Of a DNA stretch of 64,000 bases, positions 30,193 to 38,220 are shown in pieces; the stretch's first letter is position 1, and every line of letters begins with the position of its first letter. The stretch comes from Oscillospiraceae bacterium (GTDB lineage: Bacteria; Bacillota; Clostridia; Oscillospirales; CAG-272): positions 76,206 to 140,205 of the forward strand of contig SVSG01000001.1 of NCBI GenBank assembly GCA_015064415.1, written 5' to 3'. The position numbers and the translations under genes were made by a program. The notes under the pieces were generated by a model, which ran no database searches, was not told the origin of the DNA, and saw only the letters and a list, made by a program, of their open reading frames with translations.

Positions 30193-30316
30193 TTTCATGT
30201 CCTCCTTTGGTTTTTTCCACCACGGGATCCGATGCAGAGACCGCACGGCGTGCGGCACCGACTGCACTTGTAATCACGTGTGTGAATTTTTGTCTTGCTT
30301 TGCGCAAGCGGGAATT

Positions 30317-30345
30317 ATTATAACATAAACGTGCACACAATGCAA
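30317..30345 (-). promoter_or_regulatory. Candidate promoter of rpsB-tsf
   Basis: Minus strand reads TTGCAT (30345-30340), 17-nt spacer ending in TATG, TATAAT (30322-30317). Confidence 0.55.
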
Positions 30346-30402
30346 TACCCTACGCACACGTTTACATTTTTTTTACATTTGAGAGTGCAATTCCCTGTTA
30401 AG

Positions 30403-30437
30403 CCTTGCCCCGCGCCCTTTTCGGGCGTGGGGCAAGG
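30403..30437 (-). terminator. 14-bp stem-loop 5 nt after the giant lipoprotein stop (no clear U-tract)
   Basis: ccttgccccgcgcc/ggcgtggggcaagg with one G-U pair. No T-run on either side, so it may be a weak terminator or an RNA-stability element. Confidence 0.35.
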
Positions 30438-30441
30438 AGGG

Positions 30442-33400
30442 TCAGGTGCGCTTCCAGTAATAAATTTCGTAGGTCGATCTCAGATAGGTTGCCGCGGTGG
30501 ATGCGTCGGACAGGTCGGCGGCAGGGATGGCCGTGCCGCTTGTAGCGGTGTCGGAGGAAGCGTACCACCAGCCGTTGGGGTTGGCAAAGGTGACGGAGGT
30601 CAACTTAGAGCAATCGCAGAACGCATACCGGCCGATGCTCGTCACGCTCGCGGGGATGGTGACAGAGGTCAGGTTAGAGCAATTCTCAAACGCAGAAGAG
30701 CCGATGCTCGTCACGCTCGCGGGGATGGTGACGGAAGTCAGGTTAGAGCAAAATCGGAACGCACCACCGCCGATGCTGGTCAGTTGGCTGTTTGCGCCAA
30801 ACTCCACCGTGGTCAGTTTAGAGCAACCGTAGAACGCATCATCGCCGATGCTCGTCACGCTCGCGGGGATGGTGACGGAGGTCAGAGAGCAACGGCAGAA
30901 CGCATCATTGCCGATGCTTGTCAGTTGGCTGTTTGCACCAAATGTAACCGTGGTCAGGTTAGAGCAATTCTCAAACGCAGAAGAGCCGATGCTCGTCACG
31001 CTCGCGGGGATGGTGACGGAGGTCAGGTTAGAGCAATAGTAGAACGCCCGATAGCCGATGCCGGTCAGTTGGCTGTTTGTGCCAAACTCCACCGCGGTCA
31101 GGCTAATGCAATTGTAGAACGCCTCATCGCCGATGCTCGTCACGCTCGCGGGGATGGTGACGGTGGTCAGTTTATAGCAATAGAAGAACGCAGAATCGCC
31201 GATGCTTGTCACGCTCGCGGGGATGGTGACGGAGGTCAACTGAGAGCAACCGCGGAACGCATAATCGCCGATGCTCGTCACGCTCGCGGGGATGGTGATA
31301 GAGGTCAGGCCGGTGCAACCGTTGAACGCATAGCTTTTAATGGCCGTAATGCCGCTTGGAATCTCCAACGCGGTGACCAATTGACCGTTCAAATACAAAT
31401 TCTTTGCATAATACAACGGATTGGCATAAGAGTCTCCGAATGTAATATTGCACCACGCCGCAAGATCACTGATGTAAACAGCGTTTAGGTTAAAGCAATA
31501 GAAGAACGCCTTATAGCCGATGCTCATCACGCTCGCGGGGATGGTGACGGAGGTCAGACTATCGCAATCGTAGAACGCATAAGCTTTAATGGCCGTAACA
31601 CCGCTTGGAATATCCAACGCGGTGACCAATTGACCGTTTAAATACAGATTCTCTGCATCATACAACGGATTGGCATAAAAGTTTTCGAATGTAATATTAC
31701 ACCACGCCGCAAGGTCACTGATGTAAACCGCGGTCAGGCCGGTGCAATTGTAGAACGCAGAATCGCCGATGCTTGTCACGCTCGCGGGGATGGTGACGGA
31801 GGTCAACTGAGAGCAACCGCGGAACGCATAATCGCCGATGCTCGTCACGCTCGCGGGGATGGTGATAGAGGTCAGGCCGGTGCAACCGTTGAACGCATAG
31901 CTTTTAATGGCCGTAATGCCGCTTGGAATCTCCAACGCGGTGACCAATTGACCGTTCAAATAAAAATTTTTTGCATACCACAACGGATTGGCATAAGAGT
32001 ATTCGAATGTAATATTACACCACGCCGCAAGGTCGGTGATGTAAACAGCGGTCAGGTTAGAGCAATAGTAGAACGCATCATCGCCGATGCTCGTCACGCT
32101 CGCGGGGATGGTGACGGAGGTCAACTTAGAGCAATCCTCGAACGCAGAATTGCCGATGCTCGTCACGGCAACGCCCTTGTAGGTGGCGGGGATGACAACC
32201 TCGGTAGTGGTGCCGGTATAATCGGTGACGGTATAGGTGCCTCCGCTTAAGGCAAATTTCAAACCGATCTCCACATAAGCGTGTGCGCACACGGTGCATA
32301 TATTTTGCGCGTTGTAGGTATGAGGGACCTTTTCATGCATATAGTTGCAGCCGCTATTCGAGCAACTACCCCAATGTCCGATCGCATCCTTTTCCCAAGT
32401 AGTGGCCGGGGCGTGCTTGCTTGCATCGATCGGGATCGCCTCGGTGACCTTGTGGGAGCAGGTCGTGCAGGTCTTATAATGGCTGCCCTCGGCCACGCAG
32501 GTGGGGGCAAGGTTCTCGACCCAGTTGCCGTAGCTGTGGGTAGTCTTGCTCAGCTGCACACCACAGCCCGTGCGGGTGCACACCTTCCAATGGTTTGTGC
32601 CGTCGGTCGTCCAAGTGGTGGCGGGGGCGTGGTTACTTGCGTCGATCGGGATCGCCTCGGTGACCTTGTGGGAGCAGGTCGTGCAGGTCTTGTAATGGCT
32701 TCCCTCGGCCACGCAGGTGGGGGCAAGGGTTTCGGTCCACGCGCCATAGGTGTGGGTAGTCTTGCTCAACTGCACGGTGCAGCCCGTGCGGGTGCACTTG
32801 TGCCAGTGCCCTGTTTCATCGCTTGTCCAATCTGCAGCCGGCGCGTGCTTGCTTGCGTCGATCGGGATCGCCTCGGTGACCTTGTGGGAGCAGGTCGTGC
32901 AGGTCTTATAATGGCTGCCCTCGGCCACACAGGTGGGGGCGAGGGTTTCGACCCAGTTGCCGTAGCTGTGGGTAGTCTTGCTCAACTGCACGGTGCAACC
33001 GTTATTGGTGCACTTGTGCCAGTGCCCTGTTGCATCCTTTTCCCAAGCAGTGGCCGGGGCGTGCTTGCTTGCGTCGATCGGGATCGCCTCGGTTTGTCTG
33101 TAAGCGCAGACCGTGCAATCTCTGTAATGGCTGCCCTCGGCCACGCAGGTGGGGGCGAGGGTCTCGACCCATTCACCGTAGGTGTGGGTAGTCTTGTTCA
33201 CTTGCGCAGTACAGCCCGTGCGGGTGCACTTGTGCCAGTGCCCTGTTGCATCCTTTTCCCAAGCAGTGGCCGGGGCGTGCTTGCTTGCGTCGATCGGGAT
33301 CGCCTCGGTCACCTTGTGGGAGCAGGTCGTGCAGATCTTATAATGGCTGCCCTCTGCCACACAGGTGGGGGCAAGGGTCTCGACCCAGTTGCCGTAGCTG

Positions 33401-35874
33401 TGGGTAGTCTTGCTCAGCTGCGCGGTGCAGCCGGTGCGGGTGCAGACCTTCCAATGGTGGGTACCGTCGGTCGTCCAAGTGGTGGCGGGGGCGTGATCAA
33501 GCTGCGGAATGGTGTGATGGGTGCGATCCAGCTCGTCACCGCAGACCTCACAGTAAATGGCCATATCATACGTGCCCATTACGGTACACTTGGGCTCCAC
33601 GCGGTTTTCCTCAACGGCGGCAAGGGGCACCGCGACGTTGCAGTGGCACTTATAGCCGTAGAACACACCGTTGATATAGACCTTGCCAAGCGCCTGCGCC
33701 CTCCACCAGGGGGAGCCGTTCCACGCGCCGTAGTTCGGCTCGGTCACGGTATCGGGATAGGTCACGCTTGTGAGGTAGGGCAGATAATTGTAGCTTTGAA
33801 AGCCGCGCACGGCGGTGGCACCCTCCTCGATGACAACAGCCACCAGCTTGGGGGTGTTTTTGTGCTCAAAGGGCTCAAACAGCCGCTCGGGCACCACGGC
33901 CTCGGGGGCAAGGGTCAGCGTAATACCCGCCCCCGCAATGCCCGCGTTGTAAAAAATGTAGTTTTCCCCGCCCATATCGCCCGCAAGGGTGCTGGCAAGG
34001 TAGACGGCGCGCAGGCTCTGGCACTCGTAAAAGGCGGAGTTGCCCCACAGCTGAATATTGCCAAGGATGCGCAGGGTCTGCAAACCGTCACAGTAGGAGA
34101 ATGCCGAATTGCCGATGCGGGTGATGCCCGCGTGCAGCTCTACGTTCACAAGACTGACGCAATACTGGAACGCGGCGTTGCCGATGGTGGTCAGCACCTC
34201 GGAAAAGGTAACGCTTTGCAGCGCCTCGGCATGGCGGAAGGACATATTGCCCAGGGTGGTGACGGTGTCGGGCATATCAAAGCACCGCAGCGCCTTGCAG
34301 TTATCAAAGGCCATGTTGTCAATGGTCAACAGCCCCTCGCTTACCGTAACGCTTTCCATGGCGGTGCAATAGGAAAAGGCGGAAATACCAATGATCTGCA
34401 CACCCTCTCTCACCGCGGCCGAGATCAGACCGGTGCAGTTTGCAAAGGTCTCCTCTCTGATCCATGTGACGCTGCCGGGTACAACGATCTCACCAAGGGC
34501 GGTGCAGTTTTTAAAGGCGCGCTCGCCAAGGTAAGAAACGCTGGTGGGCAGTTCTATCGCGGTAAGTGCCGTGCAGCCCATAAAGGCCTCGTCCTCGATG
34601 GTCTGGATGGTGTTGGGCAGAATGATCTTTTCCAGATCGGTGTTGCCCCTGAACGCCTCAGTGCCGATGGTGATCACGCGCAGACCGTCGTGCAATCGGG
34701 GGATCTCAACCTCGGTGAAATCGCCCACGATGCCGGTGACAACGTAAAAGCTGTAATCGGAGGTGGGGGTAAACAGCAGCACGTAGCCGTCATAAAAGGT
34801 TTCGCTGCCCTTTGTGCCGCAGACGCAGGAACGGTAATAGGTGGCGGGCGCGGTGGCGCTTGCGCCGGAGGCGAGATACGCCGCCGTTTTTACCTTACGG
34901 TCATAAACGTGTGCGCCCGTGGGCAACACGTCGCGCGTTTCGTCCGCACCGCAAGCGCAGGTGCGGGTCTCCACGCCCTTTGCCTGACAGGTGGCGGGTG
35001 TGGTGATGTTCCAATTGCCAAAGCTATGGGCGTTGGGGTTGATCGCTACGTCACGGCTTTCGGTCTTGCCGCAGGTGCAGGTGCGGGTCTCCTCGCCTTT
35101 TGCCTGACAGGTGGCGGGTGTGGTTGTGCCCCATTGACCCCAAGCAACGTGATTGCTCATATTCTTGGCAACGTCACGCGTTTCGTCCGCACCGCAAGCG
35201 CAGGAGCGGGTCTCCTCGCCCTTTGCTTGACAGGTGGCGGGTGTGGTGATGCCCCATTGACCCCAAGCAACGTGATTGCTCATATTCTTGGAAACGTCAC
35301 GTGTTTCGTCCGCACCGCAAGCGCAGGAGCGGGTCTCCACGCCCTTGGCCTGACAGGTGGCGGGTGTGATTGTGCCCCATTGACCCCAAGCAACGTGATT
35401 GCTCATATTCTTGGCAACGTCACGCGTTTCGTCCGCACCGCAAGCGCAGGTGCGGGTCTCCACGCCCTTTGCTTGACAGGTGGCGGGTGTGATTGTGCCC
35501 CAATTGCCAAAGGTATGGGCGTTGGGGTCGATCGCCACGTCGCGGCTTTTGGTCTCGCCACAAGCGCAGGTGCGGGTCTCCACGCCTTTTGTCGTACAGG
35601 TAGGTGCGGTGGTTTCTACCCATTCGCCAAAGCTGTGGGTATGCTCAGGCGTGGCGGGGGTATCGCCGCCGGGTGTGTCGGTGCCGCCGGGGGGCGTTAC
35701 AATATCAATGCCGTCTGTATAGCTCTCGTTACACTTGTCGCAAAGCGCGTTGTCGTCCGCATCGCGGTGCTGACAGACGGGGGCGGGAGTGGGCTCCTCC
35801 TCGCAGGCGGTCAGCGCAAGGGCGCAGACCAGGCACAGGAGGGCGGCCAGCAATATCAAAAATCGTTTTTTCAT
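30442..35874 (-). CDS. Giant surface lipoprotein (1,810 aa) with two BspA-type leucine-rich-repeat blocks and Cys/His-rich tandem modules
   Basis: Lipobox signal peptide MKKRFLILLAALLCLVCALALTAC. Repeated 23-aa units of the type SVTIPASVTSIGDxAFxxCxxLT. 41-aa and 72-aa Cys-rich repeats (listed separately below). Confidence 0.85.
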   Translation of the reverse strand: MKKRFLILLAALLCLVCALALTACEEEPTPAPVCQHRDADDNALCDKCNESYTDGIDIVTPPGGTDTPGGDTPATPEHTHSFGEWVETTAPTCTTKGVETRTCACGETKSRDVAIDPNAHTFGNWGTITPATCQAKGVETRTCACGADETRDVAKNMSNHVAWGQWGTITPATCQAKGVETRSCACGADETRDVSKNMSNHVAWGQWGITTPATCQAKGEETRSCACGADETRDVAKNMSNHVAWGQWGTTTPATCQAKGEETRTCTCGKTESRDVAINPNAHSFGNWNITTPATCQAKGVETRTCACGADETRDVLPTGAHVYDRKVKTAAYLASGASATAPATYYRSCVCGTKGSETFYDGYVLLFTPTSDYSFYVVTGIVGDFTEVEIPRLHDGLRVITIGTEAFRGNTDLEKIILPNTIQTIEDEAFMGCTALTAIELPTSVSYLGERAFKNCTALGEIVVPGSVTWIREETFANCTGLISAAVREGVQIIGISAFSYCTAMESVTVSEGLLTIDNMAFDNCKALRCFDMPDTVTTLGNMSFRHAEALQSVTFSEVLTTIGNAAFQYCVSLVNVELHAGITRIGNSAFSYCDGLQTLRILGNIQLWGNSAFYECQSLRAVYLASTLAGDMGGENYIFYNAGIAGAGITLTLAPEAVVPERLFEPFEHKNTPKLVAVVIEEGATAVRGFQSYNYLPYLTSVTYPDTVTEPNYGAWNGSPWWRAQALGKVYINGVFYGYKCHCNVAVPLAAVEENRVEPKCTVMGTYDMAIYCEVCGDELDRTHHTIPQLDHAPATTWTTDGTHHWKVCTRTGCTAQLSKTTHSYGNWVETLAPTCVAEGSHYKICTTCSHKVTEAIPIDASKHAPATAWEKDATGHWHKCTRTGCTAQVNKTTHTYGEWVETLAPTCVAEGSHYRDCTVCAYRQTEAIPIDASKHAPATAWEKDATGHWHKCTNNGCTVQLSKTTHSYGNWVETLAPTCVAEGSHYKTCTTCSHKVTEAIPIDASKHAPAADWTSDETGHWHKCTRTGCTVQLSKTTHTYGAWTETLAPTCVAEGSHYKTCTTCSHKVTEAIPIDASNHAPATTWTTDGTNHWKVCTRTGCGVQLSKTTHSYGNWVENLAPTCVAEGSHYKTCTTCSHKVTEAIPIDASKHAPATTWEKDAIGHWGSCSNSGCNYMHEKVPHTYNAQNICTVCAHAYVEIGLKFALSGGTYTVTDYTGTTTEVVIPATYKGVAVTSIGNSAFEDCSKLTSVTIPASVTSIGDDAFYYCSNLTAVYITDLAAWCNITFEYSYANPLWYAKNFYLNGQLVTALEIPSGITAIKSYAFNGCTGLTSITIPASVTSIGDYAFRGCSQLTSVTIPASVTSIGDSAFYNCTGLTAVYISDLAAWCNITFENFYANPLYDAENLYLNGQLVTALDIPSGVTAIKAYAFYDCDSLTSVTIPASVMSIGYKAFFYCFNLNAVYISDLAAWCNITFGDSYANPLYYAKNLYLNGQLVTALEIPSGITAIKSYAFNGCTGLTSITIPASVTSIGDYAFRGCSQLTSVTIPASVTSIGDSAFFYCYKLTTVTIPASVTSIGDEAFYNCISLTAVEFGTNSQLTGIGYRAFYYCSNLTSVTIPASVTSIGSSAFENCSNLTTVTFGANSQLTSIGNDAFCRCSLTSVTIPASVTSIGDDAFYGCSKLTTVEFGANSQLTSIGGGAFRFCSNLTSVTIPASVTSIGSSAFENCSNLTSVTIPASVTSIGRYAFCDCSKLTSVTFANPNGWWYASSDTATSGTAIPAADLSDASTAATYLRSTYEIYYWKRT
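31185..31394 (-). repeat. Copy A of a ~210-bp perfect direct repeat (partner at 31752-31961)
   Basis: Hand comparison found the two stretches identical base for base, with an offset of 567 bp (189 codons, in frame). Confidence 0.8.
31752..31961 (-). repeat. Copy B of the ~210-bp perfect direct repeat
   Basis: See copy A. Divergence begins at ...accgttcaaata|a versus |c. Confidence 0.8.
32275..33651 (-). repeat. 216-bp (72-aa) tandem Cys/His-rich modules, 5 full plus 2 partial
   Basis: The marker cgatcgggatcgcc recurs at 32427, 32643, 32859, 33075 and 33291 (exact 216-bp spacing). Protein units start with HAPAT at residues 794, 866, 938, 1010, 1082 and 1154. Confidence 0.85.
34000..34692 (-). 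repeat. LRR block 1 (more divergent BspA-type LRRs)
   Basis: Protein residues ~395-625 with units such as IGTEAFRGNTDLEKIILPNTIQTIEDEAFMGCTALTAIELP. Confidence 0.7.
34921..35643 (-). repeat. 123-bp (40-41 aa) tandem Cys-rich modules, 6 copies
   Basis: Units begin at residues 80, 120, 160, 201, 242 and 283 (H-x-F/A-G/W-x-W...PATCQAKGxETRxCACG). The DNA marker gtttcgtccgcaccgcaagcgcag is spaced 123 bp apart. Confidence 0.85.
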
Positions 35875-35904
35875 GGCCTTTCTCCTTTCAAAAGGATGAT
35901 TTTG

Positions 35905-38220
35905 TCAAAGCGCGGTGACGAGCAGCTCGCCGTCCTTGACGTCAACGCGGGCGTGCGTAATAGAGCGCTCGAAGTCCGCAATGATCTTCTCGGCCAGCGC
36001 ATCCTCCACGTGGGTCTGGATATAACGGCGCATGTTACGCGCACCGTATTTGTGCGAGTAGGACTCCCGTGCGATCACGGCAAGCGCCGCGTCGGTGAAG
36101 GTAAGCGTAATTCCCTTTTCTGCCAGCGCCGACTTGAGCTCATTCATCATAATGGCGGCGATCCTTGCAAAATCCTCCTCGGTCAGCGCGCGGAAGGTGA
36201 TGACCTCGTCCACGCGGTTGAGAAATTCGGGACGCAGGAAGCGGGAAAGCGCTTTTTCGGTGCGCGCATCCTCGATCTGCTGCTCCCCCGTACCGAAGCC
36301 CGCAAGCGCGCCTGCGCGATCGGAGCCCGCGTTCGTGGTCATGATCAACACGGTGTTTTCAAAGTTCACGGTCTTACCGCGCGCGTCGGTGATGCGCCCG
36401 TCATCCAAAATCTGAAGCAGGACGTTAAGCACGTCGGGATGCGCCTTTTCGATCTCGTCGAACAGCACCACGGAATAGGGGCGGCGGCGGATCTTTTCGG
36501 TCAGCTGCCCCGCCTCGTCATACCCCACGTATCCGGGAGGCGCTCCGATGATGCGGGAGACCGAGTGCTTTTCCATGAACTCGGACATATCCAGACGGAT
36601 CAGTGTTTCGGGGCTGTCGAAAAGATCGGCGGCAAGCGTTTTCACAAGCTCGGTCTTGCCCACGCCCGTGGGGCCTGCAAAAATAAAGGAGACCGGCTTG
36701 CGCTTGTAGGAAACGCCGGCGCGATTGCGCTTAATGGCGCGGGCGACGGCCTCAACGGCCTGATTTTGTCCGATGATGCGCTTCTTGAGACGCTCCTCAA
36801 GACCCGAAATGCGCTTGAACTCGTTTTCGCTGATATTGGCGGCAGGAATCCCCGTCCAGATCTCGATGACCTGGGCCAGATTCTCCTCGGTCATGCAGAC
36901 CTTTCCCAGATCCGGCTCGATCTGTGCAAGGCGCTCTGCCAGCTGCAGCTCCTTTGCCTTGATGCGCGCAAGATCCTCAAAACGCTGCTTCTCGGATTGC
37001 TCGTCATTGGCAAGATCTGCCTCTAAGGCCTCCCGTTTCTCTTTTTCGCGCAACATTTGTTCTTTTATTTCATAACTTTCGTTCATAACAGAGCTGTTGA
37101 GCGAAAGCTCTGCGGCGGCCTCATCCAAAAGGTCAATGGCCTTATCCGGCAGGTATCTGTCGGTAATATAGCGCTCGGAAAGCACCACGGCGCGGCGCAG
37201 GATATCATCGGAAATATGAACGCCGTGAAATTCCTCGTAGTAATGCTTGATGCCCTTCAGCATTTCCACGGCATCGTCCACGGAGGGCTCGTTCACGGTG
37301 ACGGGCTGGAAACGGCGCTCCAGCGCGGTGTCCTTTTCGATATATTTGCGGTACTCCGTCAGCGTGGTGGCACCGATGATCTGCACCTCGCCGCGCGAGA
37401 GCGCGGGCTTGAGAATATTGGCGGCGTTCGTGCCTCCCTCTGCGTTTCCGGTGCCCACGATATTGTGCACCTCGTCGATCACAAGGATGATATTTCCCGC
37501 CTCGGTCACCTCGTTCAAAAGTCCCATAATACGGCTTTCAAACTGGCCGCGGAACTGCGTGCCCGCTACCAGCGCGGTCATGTCTACCAGATACACCTCT
37601 TTGCCGCGCAATTTGTACGGCACGTCATTGTCAGCCAAACGCTGTGCAAGCGCCTCCGCGATCGCGGTCTTGCCCACACCGGGCTCACCGATCAGGCAAG
37701 GATTGTTCTTTTGTCTGCGCGAAAGGATCTGGATGACGCGCGCCAGTTCCCTGTCGCGTCCCACGATGCGGTCCAATCTCCCCTCCGCCGCGCGGCGGGT
37801 CAGATTCCGACAGTAGGTCTCCAAAAGCTTGCGCTTTTTCTCCTTGGGTGCCTTTTCCTTCTTTTTTTGCTTTTCCCCGTCCTTTTCCTCCTCGGCACTT
37901 TCCTCCTTGGGATTGCCGAAAAGGCCGCTTTCGCGGAAGAGCTTCGGGAAATCGATGGCCGGCGCGCCGCCGTCCTCATTATCATCGCTGTCGCTCGGCA
38001 ACCCACCTTGGATCAGTCCGTTGATCTCCTCTTCCAGATTTTCCATCTGCTCAGGGGAAATACCAAGCTTGCCGATCACGTTTCCCATCATCTGATCGGT
38101 GGGCAACCCCAATTCTTTGGCGCAACGGATGCAAAGTCCCTCGGTCTTGCGCTGTCCGTTTTCCACCTTGGTCACAAACACGGTTGCCACGCGCTTGTTA
38201 CACTTGGAACACATCATCAT
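35905..38220 (-). CDS. clpE: Clp/Hsp100 AAA+ ATPase, ClpE-type (N-terminal zinc ribbon, two AAA modules)
   Basis: N-terminus MMMCSKCNKRVATVF...GLCIRCAKELG (CxxC...CxxC). Walker A motifs GEPGVGKT and GPTGVGKT, plus the ClpA/B signature. Confidence 0.75.
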   Translation of the reverse strand: MMMCSKCNKRVATVFVTKVENGQRKTEGLCIRCAKELGLPTDQMMGNVIGKLGISPEQMENLEEEINGLIQGGLPSDSDDNEDGGAPAIDFPKLFRESGLFGNPKEESAEEEKDGEKQKKKEKAPKEKKRKLLETYCRNLTRRAAEGRLDRIVGRDRELARVIQILSRRQKNNPCLIGEPGVGKTAIAEALAQRLADNDVPYKLRGKEVYLVDMTALVAGTQFRGQFESRIMGLLNEVTEAGNIILVIDEVHNIVGTGNAEGGTNAANILKPALSRGEVQIIGATTLTEYRKYIEKDTALERRFQPVTVNEPSVDDAVEMLKGIKHYYEEFHGVHISDDILRRAVVLSERYITDRYLPDKAIDLLDEAAAELSLNSSVMNESYEIKEQMLREKEKREALEADLANDEQSEKQRFEDLARIKAKELQLAERLAQIEPDLGKVCMTEENLAQVIEIWTGIPAANISENEFKRISGLEERLKKRIIGQNQAVEAVARAIKRNRAGVSYKRKPVSFIFAGPTGVGKTELVKTLAADLFDSPETLIRLDMSEFMEKHSVSRIIGAPPGYVGYDEAGQLTEKIRRRPYSVVLFDEIEKAHPDVLNVLLQILDDGRITDARGKTVNFENTVLIMTTNAGSDRAGALAGFGTGEQQIEDARTEKALSRFLRPEFLNRVDEVITFRALTEEDFARIAAIMMNELKSALAEKGITLTFTDAALAVIARESYSHKYGARNMRRYIQTHVEDALAEKIIADFERSITHARVDVKDGELLVTAL

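Follow-up and report, generated by a model that had tools for sequence, protein, structure and literature searches.

What joins a long series of small, His- and Cys-rich units on the surface of a gut anaerobe, and what such a series is for, are the questions raised by one gene (30442-35874, minus strand) in a 64,000-nucleotide stretch of contig SVSG01000001.1 from an Oscillospiraceae bacterium (assembly GCA_015064415.1); this whole stretch is called the window here, and positions are numbered within it. The gene encodes an 1810-amino-acid (aa) surface lipoprotein, in which an earlier reading of the letters (the original prediction) had described about 13 copies of an extracellular His/Trp/Cys module that could not be assigned to a named domain. 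In the reading favored here, to which a probability of roughly 70% is attached, the protein is a lipoprotein adhesin whose two leucine-rich repeat (LRR) heads sit on rods of two module types, A and B, that are stapled end to end by metal ions, and these rods serve as stalks. The evidence consists of tandem repeats in the DNA and protein, significant homology to segments of an IgA protease, a confident fold prediction, substitution rules among the putative ligands across homologues, and the placement of the arrays on the anchor side of the proteins that carry them.

Repeat Arrays and Domain Layout

The roughly 20 small Cys/His modules of the protein are real repeats. Tandem Repeats Finder (TRF) detected a period of 216 bp at 32395-33444 (4.9 copies, 84% matches, 0% indels, score 1454) and one of 123 bp at 34928-35502 (4.7 copies, 86% matches, 1% indels, score 819); both had been called exact, which stands for the former, whereas the latter is exact for three units only, the N-terminal units measuring 40, 40, 41, 41, 41, and 39 aa. 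When a hidden Markov model (HMM) of the core was run against the six-frame translation of the window, exactly 11 canonical copies were returned, all in the adhesin gene, six of them N-terminal (aa 80-321) and five forming the second halves of 72-aa units (aa 825-1153). Together with three or four degenerate copies (aa 322-365, 741-793, 1185-1198, and perhaps 34-48), these bear out the earlier count, and the motif as first written is correct. The upstream HAPAT-W half that had been noted in the 72-aa units (H..W..D...HW..C...C) is likewise present, in six copies. The originally described core is referred to here as the A module and the HW-C-C half of the 72-aa unit as the B module; in total, 11 canonical core modules, six partner HW-C-C modules, and three or four degenerate end modules flank two BspA-type LRR domains. 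The interval first given for the modules, 32275-35643, does contain the repeats, but it also spans the first LRR domain, which is not a part of them. The layout is as follows.

30442-35874, minus strand: whole gene for the 1810-aa surface lipoprotein, a single open reading frame
35803-35874, minus strand: signal peptide and lipobox, aa 1-24, MKKRFLILLAALLCLVCALALTAC, read from the sequence
35644-35802, minus strand: post-anchor linker, aa 25-77, with a C34/H36/C45/C48 element, VCQHRDADDNALCDKC, followed by a Pro/Gly/Thr-rich stretch, read from the sequence
34912-35643, minus strand: N-terminal array of six A modules of 39-41 aa, aa 78-321 (TRF, HMM, AlphaFold2, ligand table)
34780-34911, minus strand: terminal variant module N7, aa 322-365, HVYD...YYRSCVCG..TF (sequence, protease alignment, last-in-array rule)
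33655-34779, minus strand: first BspA-type LRR domain, aa 366-740 (Pfam LRR_5)
33496-33654, minus strand: A0, variant first module of the central array, aa 741-793 (sequence, first-in-array rule)
32416-33495, minus strand: five exact 72-aa units, each a B then an A module, aa 794-1153 (TRF, HMM, AlphaFold2, homology to 9qa6_A)
32266-32415, minus strand: sixth B module, then a short cap that adjoins the second LRR domain, aa 1154-1203 (sequence, partial HMM match at E 3.4e-08)
30445-32265, minus strand: second, longer BspA-type LRR domain, aa 1204-1810 (Pfam LRR_5 and LRR_8, TRF 31108-32167)

The N-terminal A modules follow the pattern H-x2-3-G-x-W...T-C-x3-G-x5-C-x-C and the B modules the pattern H-x5-W-x2-D-x3-H-W-x2-C-x4-C-x8, and each 72-aa unit is matched by the HMM at E 1e-45 to 3e-47. 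Ligand-type residues also occur in the variant elements, A0 having C743-H-C745 at its start, a loop C763, and a C775/C778 knuckle, and the cap after the sixth B module holding H1185, C1193, C1196, and H1198. The lipobox rule is L-[AST]-[GA]-C, and Cys24, the last residue of the LTAC lipobox, is the predicted lipidated anchor residue; the extracellular setting first proposed, a lipoprotein of an anaerobe, is supported. Because it has four ligand-type residues, the C34/H36/C45/C48 element beyond the anchor (aa 33-49, 35728-35778) might be guessed to form a further mini metal site; elements resembling it ('C-D-x-D-C-x-x-C-G') are seen in homologues such as P0040.

The heads are assigned by Pfam LRR_5 (PF13306), which matches the whole protein at E 2.7e-189 (619 bits against a cut-off of 27.7) in 8 stretches, and, for the first LRR domain, by sequence matches to PDB entries 4fs7 and 4gt6. 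At 31108-32167, the second LRR domain has nested DNA repeats of its own (69, 249, and 318 bp, 80-87% matches); heads as well as stalks therefore look recently expanded.

Homology to Segments of an IgA Protease

In a phmmer search of the PDB with two 72-aa units, the one relevant match was 9qa6_A, the IgA protease of Thomasclavelia ramosa (E 7e-14), and a profile of 53 two-unit windows matched the same chain at E 1.5e-32 (115.5 bits) over chain residues 847-979 and 1073-1143, the 9QA6 chain index being the UniProt number minus 29. The starts of the B and A modules, H1 and H32, align with H935 and H968, residues that have been given as the boundaries of subdomain II in the protease (PMC12237041). 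By this alignment, the B module corresponds to subdomain II and the A module to subdomain III, and N7 resembles subdomain I of the protease segment ZBD1.

The protease segments have been described, in each case from AlphaFold models, in three papers of 2025, as the putative zinc-binding ZBD1/ZBD2 (PLoS Pathog 2025, PMC12237041), as the putative zinc-binding 'periscope' domains CTD2/CTD4 (PNAS 2025, PMC12415215), and just as beta domains (EMBO J 2025). The predicted His/Cys zinc sites were put at the interfaces between three-stranded sheets (PMC12237041, PMC12415215); CTD2 was seen as an extended rod by small-angle X-ray scattering (SAXS), and a stalk that projects functional domains was proposed (PMC12415215). 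When other descriptions of the module were searched for in the literature, only these IgA protease papers were found. The idea of a previously undefined domain must consequently be divided: the module has no model in the Pfam and NCBIfam copies searched, yet it is already in the literature, as a predicted domain, by virtue of its homology to ZBD1/ZBD2, or CTD2/CTD4.

Predicted Fold

AlphaFold2 was supplied with alignments built from the module windows of homologues and returned confident models for two 72-aa units (aa 862-1013; mean predicted local distance difference test score, pLDDT, 96.3; predicted template modeling score, pTM, 0.71) and for three A modules (aa 116-247; mean pLDDT 94.7, pTM 0.67). 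In both, each module comprises three strands in one sheet, and the modules are modeled as antiparallel sheets of up-down topology arranged end to end, as in the protease ZBDs. Neither model had a Foldseek match in the PDB at E ≤ 0.001. The marginal Foldseek matches of the central model include TFIIS-like zinc-ribbon subunits of RNA polymerases I and III, the marginal Foldseek and HMM matches overall (5fj9_I, 4c2m_I, 7z1l_I, and L32) lie at E 0.1 or worse, and the best match of the N-terminal model, complement C6, is non-significant (E 0.05, TM-score 0.24). Complement C6 has thrombospondin-type repeats.

Ligand Rules at Module Junctions

Substitution patterns were examined in 2630 unique A modules from 359 proteins, with ligands counted on the raw sequence, as H-x-H starts shift the alignment by two residues and fixed HMM columns blurred the covariation. 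H1, H14, C18, C23, H32, C55, C58, and the H1 of the next unit are invariant in the 72-aa unit, and the T-C Cys (position 45) is variable. Of 1929 A modules with this loop Cys, 1794 have exactly one downstream His; of 650 without it, 358 have at least two (odds ratio 0.05, p 2e-154; ~3e-24 when a single module is sampled from each protein). When the preceding module offers a loop ligand, only 0.4% of modules start with H-x-H (n=1232), compared with 80% when it offers none (n=249). The ends of arrays behave in kind, first-in-array modules having H-x-H in 44 of 64 cases against 10.7% elsewhere (p 5e-27), and last-in-array A modules retaining a loop Cys or His in 7 of 148 cases against 76% elsewhere (p 7e-72) and a downstream His in 5 of 148 against 97.5%. 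No B module closes an array (0 of 726).

These regularities support interlocked four-ligand sites at the junctions, in which the first His of a module and its own knuckle would be joined by a fourth ligand from the previous module or by an extra His. The adhesin itself obeys every one of these chain-link rules. N1 starts with H78-T-H80 and N2-N6 with a single His; N7 keeps the first His and the C350/C352 knuckle and is without a loop Cys; the C-H-C start of A0 fits the first-in-array rule because it supplies an extra start ligand; and the 29 Cys in aa 794-1200 and the 20 in aa 80-365 can all be assigned to tetrads. A first ligand model, which combined the loop Cys and knuckle of one module with the His of the next in a single site, was rejected, as the strand topology puts loop and knuckle at opposite ends and last-in-array modules, which have neither loop Cys nor downstream His, keep the first His and knuckle nonetheless. 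Some B modules (P0028, P0031, and similar) have 'HWHAATCEH' (Cys-x-His) in place of the C-x(n)-C knuckle, another apparent Cys-to-His swap.

One His plus three Cys per core had been read as either a small zinc knuckle or a disulfide-stapled mini-domain. Metal sites, in the form of His/Cys tetrads, are favored over disulfides, but the self-contained knuckle is not supported, as the comparative statistics assign the T-C Cys to the site of the next module. A knuckle or ribbon complete in itself, with one zinc bound within the 41-aa unit by its own His, T-C Cys, and C-x-C pair, would agree with that ligand count, with weak sub-threshold matches of homologues to zinc-ribbon and rubredoxin-like families, and with weak matches to ribosomal protein L32 and to RNA polymerase zinc-ribbon subunits; it is very unlikely, however, given that the T-C loop and the beta2-beta3 knuckle lie at opposite module ends in the modeled up-down sheet, that last-in-array modules keep the first His and knuckle while the loop Cys is lost in 95% of them, that first-in-array modules start with an extra His, and that a loop Cys in one module and an H-x-H start in the next exclude each other. 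The rules for first and last modules argue against disulfides as well. Metal-free, disulfide-stapled extracellular mini-domains of the EGF or thrombospondin type-1 repeat kind would suit an extracellular, Cys-rich sequence, and complement C6 is the best, though non-significant, Foldseek match of the N-terminal model. Such mini-domains are scarcely credible, since the odd Cys counts (3 per A module, 5 per 72-aa unit), His residues as invariant as the Cys, and the interchange of Cys and His at ligand positions argue against a disulfide-based fold; the IgA protease, moreover, was seen without disulfides and needed reducing agent for monodispersity (PMC12237041), and the hosts are strict anaerobes. 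The even, paired Cys and the lack of conserved His ligands that mark disulfide repeats were not found in the modules. Extracellular thiols can stay reduced in anaerobic gut, rumen, and oral habitats.

Proposed Model and Role as Stalks

In the proposed model, a membrane-anchored adhesin of a gut Oscillospiraceae bacterium would carry two BspA-type LRR 'heads' on two rods built from three-stranded beta-sheet modules of 31-41 aa, which come in the A and B types. One tetrahedral metal ion, most likely Zn(II), would staple consecutive modules at each junction. The site would lie at the N-terminal end of a module, where its first His meets its own C-x(1-4)-C knuckle in the beta2-beta3 turn, and the fourth ligand would come from the beta1-beta2 loop of the preceding module, as the T-C Cys of an A module or the HW His of a B module; where no such loop donor exists, an extra His two residues upstream (H-x-H) would take its place. 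Approximately 21 sites are predicted in the adhesin, with every array Cys used. The N-terminal rod, starting at the lipid anchor, would hold the first LRR domain out across the wall, with the central rod setting the second LRR domain at a greater distance. The rods are probably stiff. By extrapolation from the ~110 Å given for three subdomains of the protease (PMC12237041), the seven N-terminal modules would extend over ~25 nm and the thirteen central modules over ~45 nm.

A role as stalks is indicated by the position of the arrays. The array lies closer to the N-terminal anchor in 85 of 94 homologues with a lipobox-like N-terminus, at a median distance of 11.5 aa from the lipobox Cys (310 from the C-terminus), and closer to the C-terminal anchor in 83 of 92 C-anchored homologues (median 19 aa). 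This polarity points to a stalk or spacer that would project functional domains from the cell, in keeping with the spacer option of the original prediction, which the anchor-proximal placement fits; the wide range of head domains, the varied copy number, and the SAXS rod of the protease lend further support.

Several points weigh against this model. Zinc binding is predicted from sequence; a metal assay was sought in the text of one IgA protease paper and none was found (PMC12415215). The built experimental model of 9QA6 ends at N876, before the modules. The published tally of sites in the protease (sites 4-6 each with 2 His and 2 Cys, site 8 with 3 Cys and 1 His; PMC12237041) does not correspond one-to-one with the chain-link rule at every site, and SAXS pointed to flexibility somewhere in the C-terminal tail of the protease (PLoS Pathogens, EMBO J). 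The ligand geometry was derived by combining the strand topology with sequence statistics, not by measuring distances; repeats in one protein are non-independent, the one-per-protein resampling covering the test of loop Cys against downstream His only; and the anchor and signal-peptide calls, made by simple regular expressions, are heuristic. Finally, the central array lies between the two LRR domains and is not adjacent to the anchor.

Other functions must be weighed against that of a passive stalk. The arrays may mainly bind glycans, host proteins, or other cells, as might be read from the conserved, exposed-type aromatics (W7, W15, and W37) and invariant Gly of each unit, from sheets that reportedly have no hydrophobic core (PMC12415215), from other 'stalk' domains, e.g., the InlB B-repeat, that were later found to bind receptors, and from a central array that is not beside the anchor. 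Such a role is nevertheless unlikely: the same modules are joined to heads as different as protease, LRR, cohesin, dockerin, and FGE-sulfatase domains, their copy number runs from 2 to ~80, they keep to the anchor side whichever end is anchored, and they are dispensable for substrate cleavage in the IgA protease (PMC12237041), all of which is typical of spacers. Quite improbable, too, is that the arrays store or buffer zinc at the surface, or that they form a switch, sensitive to redox state or zinc, in which their folding state regulates the display of adhesive heads. The ~21 predicted sites of the adhesin, the up to ~80 modules of relatives, and the fact that the relatives found are all anaerobes would be compatible with such roles, whereas Cys/His tetrahedral sites are usually tight and structural, and no zinc-uptake genes adjoin the adhesin gene, which has a clpC-like gene on one side and rpsB-tsf-pyrH-frr on the other. 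A related extension of the stalk model is doubtful: the modules would form extracellular 'chain-link' rods with sites completed in trans, the reach of which would depend on conditions and act as an environmental switch of surface display in gut anaerobes. Intact rods would require extracellular Zn(II) as well as thiols in the reduced state, so adhesins, proteases, and cellulosome parts would reach out to an extent set by the environment, and the rods would collapse on exposure to oxygen or on zinc sequestration by the host.

If the metal-stapled stalk does depend on zinc, extracellular Cys/His zinc sites would be widespread, a situation plausible in anoxic habitats only, and the finding would bear on how gut Clostridia project adhesins, IgA proteases, and cellulosomal components. 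The construction rule (first His, own knuckle, and a trans ligand or H-x-H) predicts the ligands as well as the starts and ends of arrays, and could seed the definition of a family.

Domain Libraries and Family Size

Scans of the adhesin against Pfam-A and NCBIfam returned LRR families only and left the repeats unmatched, and Pfam gave no match above threshold on the repeats of ten homologues (sub-threshold zinc-finger, rubredoxin, and zinc-ribbon knuckle noise only), in agreement with the initial failure to name the domain; the strongest repeat proteins have no Pfam match at all. PF26918, PF26182, PF21469, PF21349, PF23225, and PF25420 were considered as candidates for the module and rejected, as scans of carrier proteins gave sub-threshold noise on the repeats only, the Pfam copy searched not including PF26918 and PF26182. 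In a collection of 1.84 billion cluster representatives (50% identity clusters), a profile of a single 72-aa unit matched 50,472 clusters at E ≤ 0.001, 24,697 at ≤ 1e-10, and 4,905 at ≤ 1e-30. Inflation of this count by eukaryotic C2H2 arrays was rejected, synthetic arrays of 10-35 fingers scoring ≤ 4 bits against the profile. The module family is very large and may rank among the largest found without a Pfam or NCBIfam model, and the adhesin gene presents the most repetitive form of a building block that lies outside Pfam-A and NCBIfam and has so far been noted in one enzyme only.

Across the family, copy number ranges from 2 to ~80 per protein; giant proteins with 65-80 matched stretches include P0278 (5219 aa), P0248 (7583 aa), and P0326 (4548 aa), among others. 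The head domains and anchors joined to the modules in homologues include LRR_5, cohesin, dockerin, SLH, DUF6273, FGE-sulfatase, Big_2, fn3, and DUF1566, with LPXTG motifs and transmembrane segments among the anchors, and the labels given to these proteins by NCBI or the source are 'hypothetical', 'Ig-like domain-containing', or the name of the head domain. In many homologues, a third common type of module, V-T-A-P-T-C-T-E-x-G-Y-T-T-x-T-C-x-x-C-G-D-S-Y, is interspersed among the A modules. DUF6273 (PF19789) recurs alongside the modules, and the T. ramosa IgA protease has it as its N-terminal domain (EMBO J 2025), which hints at a recurrent architecture of DUF6273 plus zinc modules.

In a scan of reference genomes with a single-sequence query, the close relatives were all from gut, rumen, or oral anaerobic Bacillota, including Eubacteriales and Faecousia metagenome-assembled genomes (MAGs), Christensenella, Ruminococcus, Faecalibacterium, Anaeroplasma, and the cultured [Eubacterium] infirmum NCTC12940. 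The nearest reference genome, Eubacteriales MAG JAZQWJ01, has three separate unit-bearing loci (L002, L003, and L004; 61%, 55%, and 35% identity), so that its lineage has paralogous module-bearing surface proteins. The oral [Eubacterium] infirmum NCTC12940 encodes a 1356-aa anchored protein with a few modules (L020, 1291-5361), the long N-terminal region of which has a different and very dense Cys motif, C-P-x-C-G-x-C, repeated many times.

Gene and Genomic Setting

The protein is an exact match to NCBI MBE6629307.1, a 'leucine-rich repeat domain-containing protein' in an Oscillospiraceae/Ruminococcaceae MAG (found in the protein collection), and the gene is also present on the 259-kb JGI metagenome contig Ga0318466_10000407. 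The ATG is preceded, 7 nt upstream, by the Shine-Dalgarno sequence AGGAGA. The upstream neighbor, a clpC-like AAA+ ATPase gene (35905-38220, minus strand), ends 30 nt from the adhesin start codon, and because only 30 nt separate them, the two genes may be co-transcribed; the N-terminus of the clpC-like protein has a C-x2-C...C-x2-C pair of its own (MMMCSKCNKR...GLCIRCAKELG). Two antisense open reading frames overlie the gene on the plus strand (32281-37026, 1581 aa, and 30295-31488, 397 aa), with low-complexity, Gly/Ala/Arg-rich translations; they appear not to be genes but shadows of a coding strand that is GC-rich and repetitive. The annotation of the adhesin gene may be improved to that of a lipoprotein adhesin with two LRR heads on predicted zinc-module stalks.

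Comparison with Known Systems

Like the classical zinc ribbons (the TFIIS C-terminal domain, Rpb9/A12.2/C11, and L32), each module is modeled as a three-stranded antiparallel sheet whose beta2-beta3 turn holds a Cys knuckle, and the metal is predicted here at the end where the N-terminus meets that turn. The modules differ in having no significant match to zinc ribbons in sequence or fold, matches to zinc-ribbon families lying below the Pfam curated cut-offs, and in having one knuckle per module, where zinc ribbons have two C-x2-C knuckles, the other predicted ligands being a His and a residue donated in trans. Zinc ribbons are also cytoplasmic single domains, whereas the modules are extracellular and tandem.

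A second comparison is with periscope or fibrillar-adhesin stalks such as the G5-E repeats of SasG/Aap and the Rib repeats, with which the modules share tandem, highly similar DNA repeats and, by prediction, elongated single-layer beta modules between anchor and head; this analogy has been drawn for the protease modules (PMC12415215). The fold is unrelated to that of SasG, Aap, and Rib, and the predicted Cys/His metal sites are intramolecular, in contrast to the inter-protomer zinc of Aap. Orthologues with other repeat numbers were sought in a metagenome scan with the first LRR domain, in which no relative exceeded 49% identity; the closest homologue (P0001/L002, 61% identity) has fewer units, but is not an orthologue. 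As for BspA-type LRR surface proteins, the two large domains of the adhesin are bona fide LRR_5 (PF13306) arrays, but LRR_5 does not extend over the Cys/His modules, which are a separate element also joined to many other heads.

The closest relatives are ZBD1/ZBD2, or CTD2/CTD4, of the T. ramosa M64 IgA protease (UniProt Q9AES2, PDB construct 9QA6), with which the adhesin shares significant sequence homology, three-stranded sheet subdomains of 31-41 aa, predicted His/Cys tetrads at the junctions, an anchor-adjacent position, and no fold relative in the PDB, both in the two papers that predict zinc binding and in this analysis. The protease is a sortase-anchored enzyme with only 3+2 non-identical subdomains, split by an Ig-like barrel, whereas the lipoprotein LRR adhesin has ~20 modules in long, near-identical tandem arrays; and where the protease has one predicted site of 3 Cys and 1 His, the A-only homotypic array of the adhesin is predicted to have such a site at every junction. 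The adhesin may thus be regarded as an unusually repetitive further example of the kind of module first described, itself by prediction, in the IgA protease.

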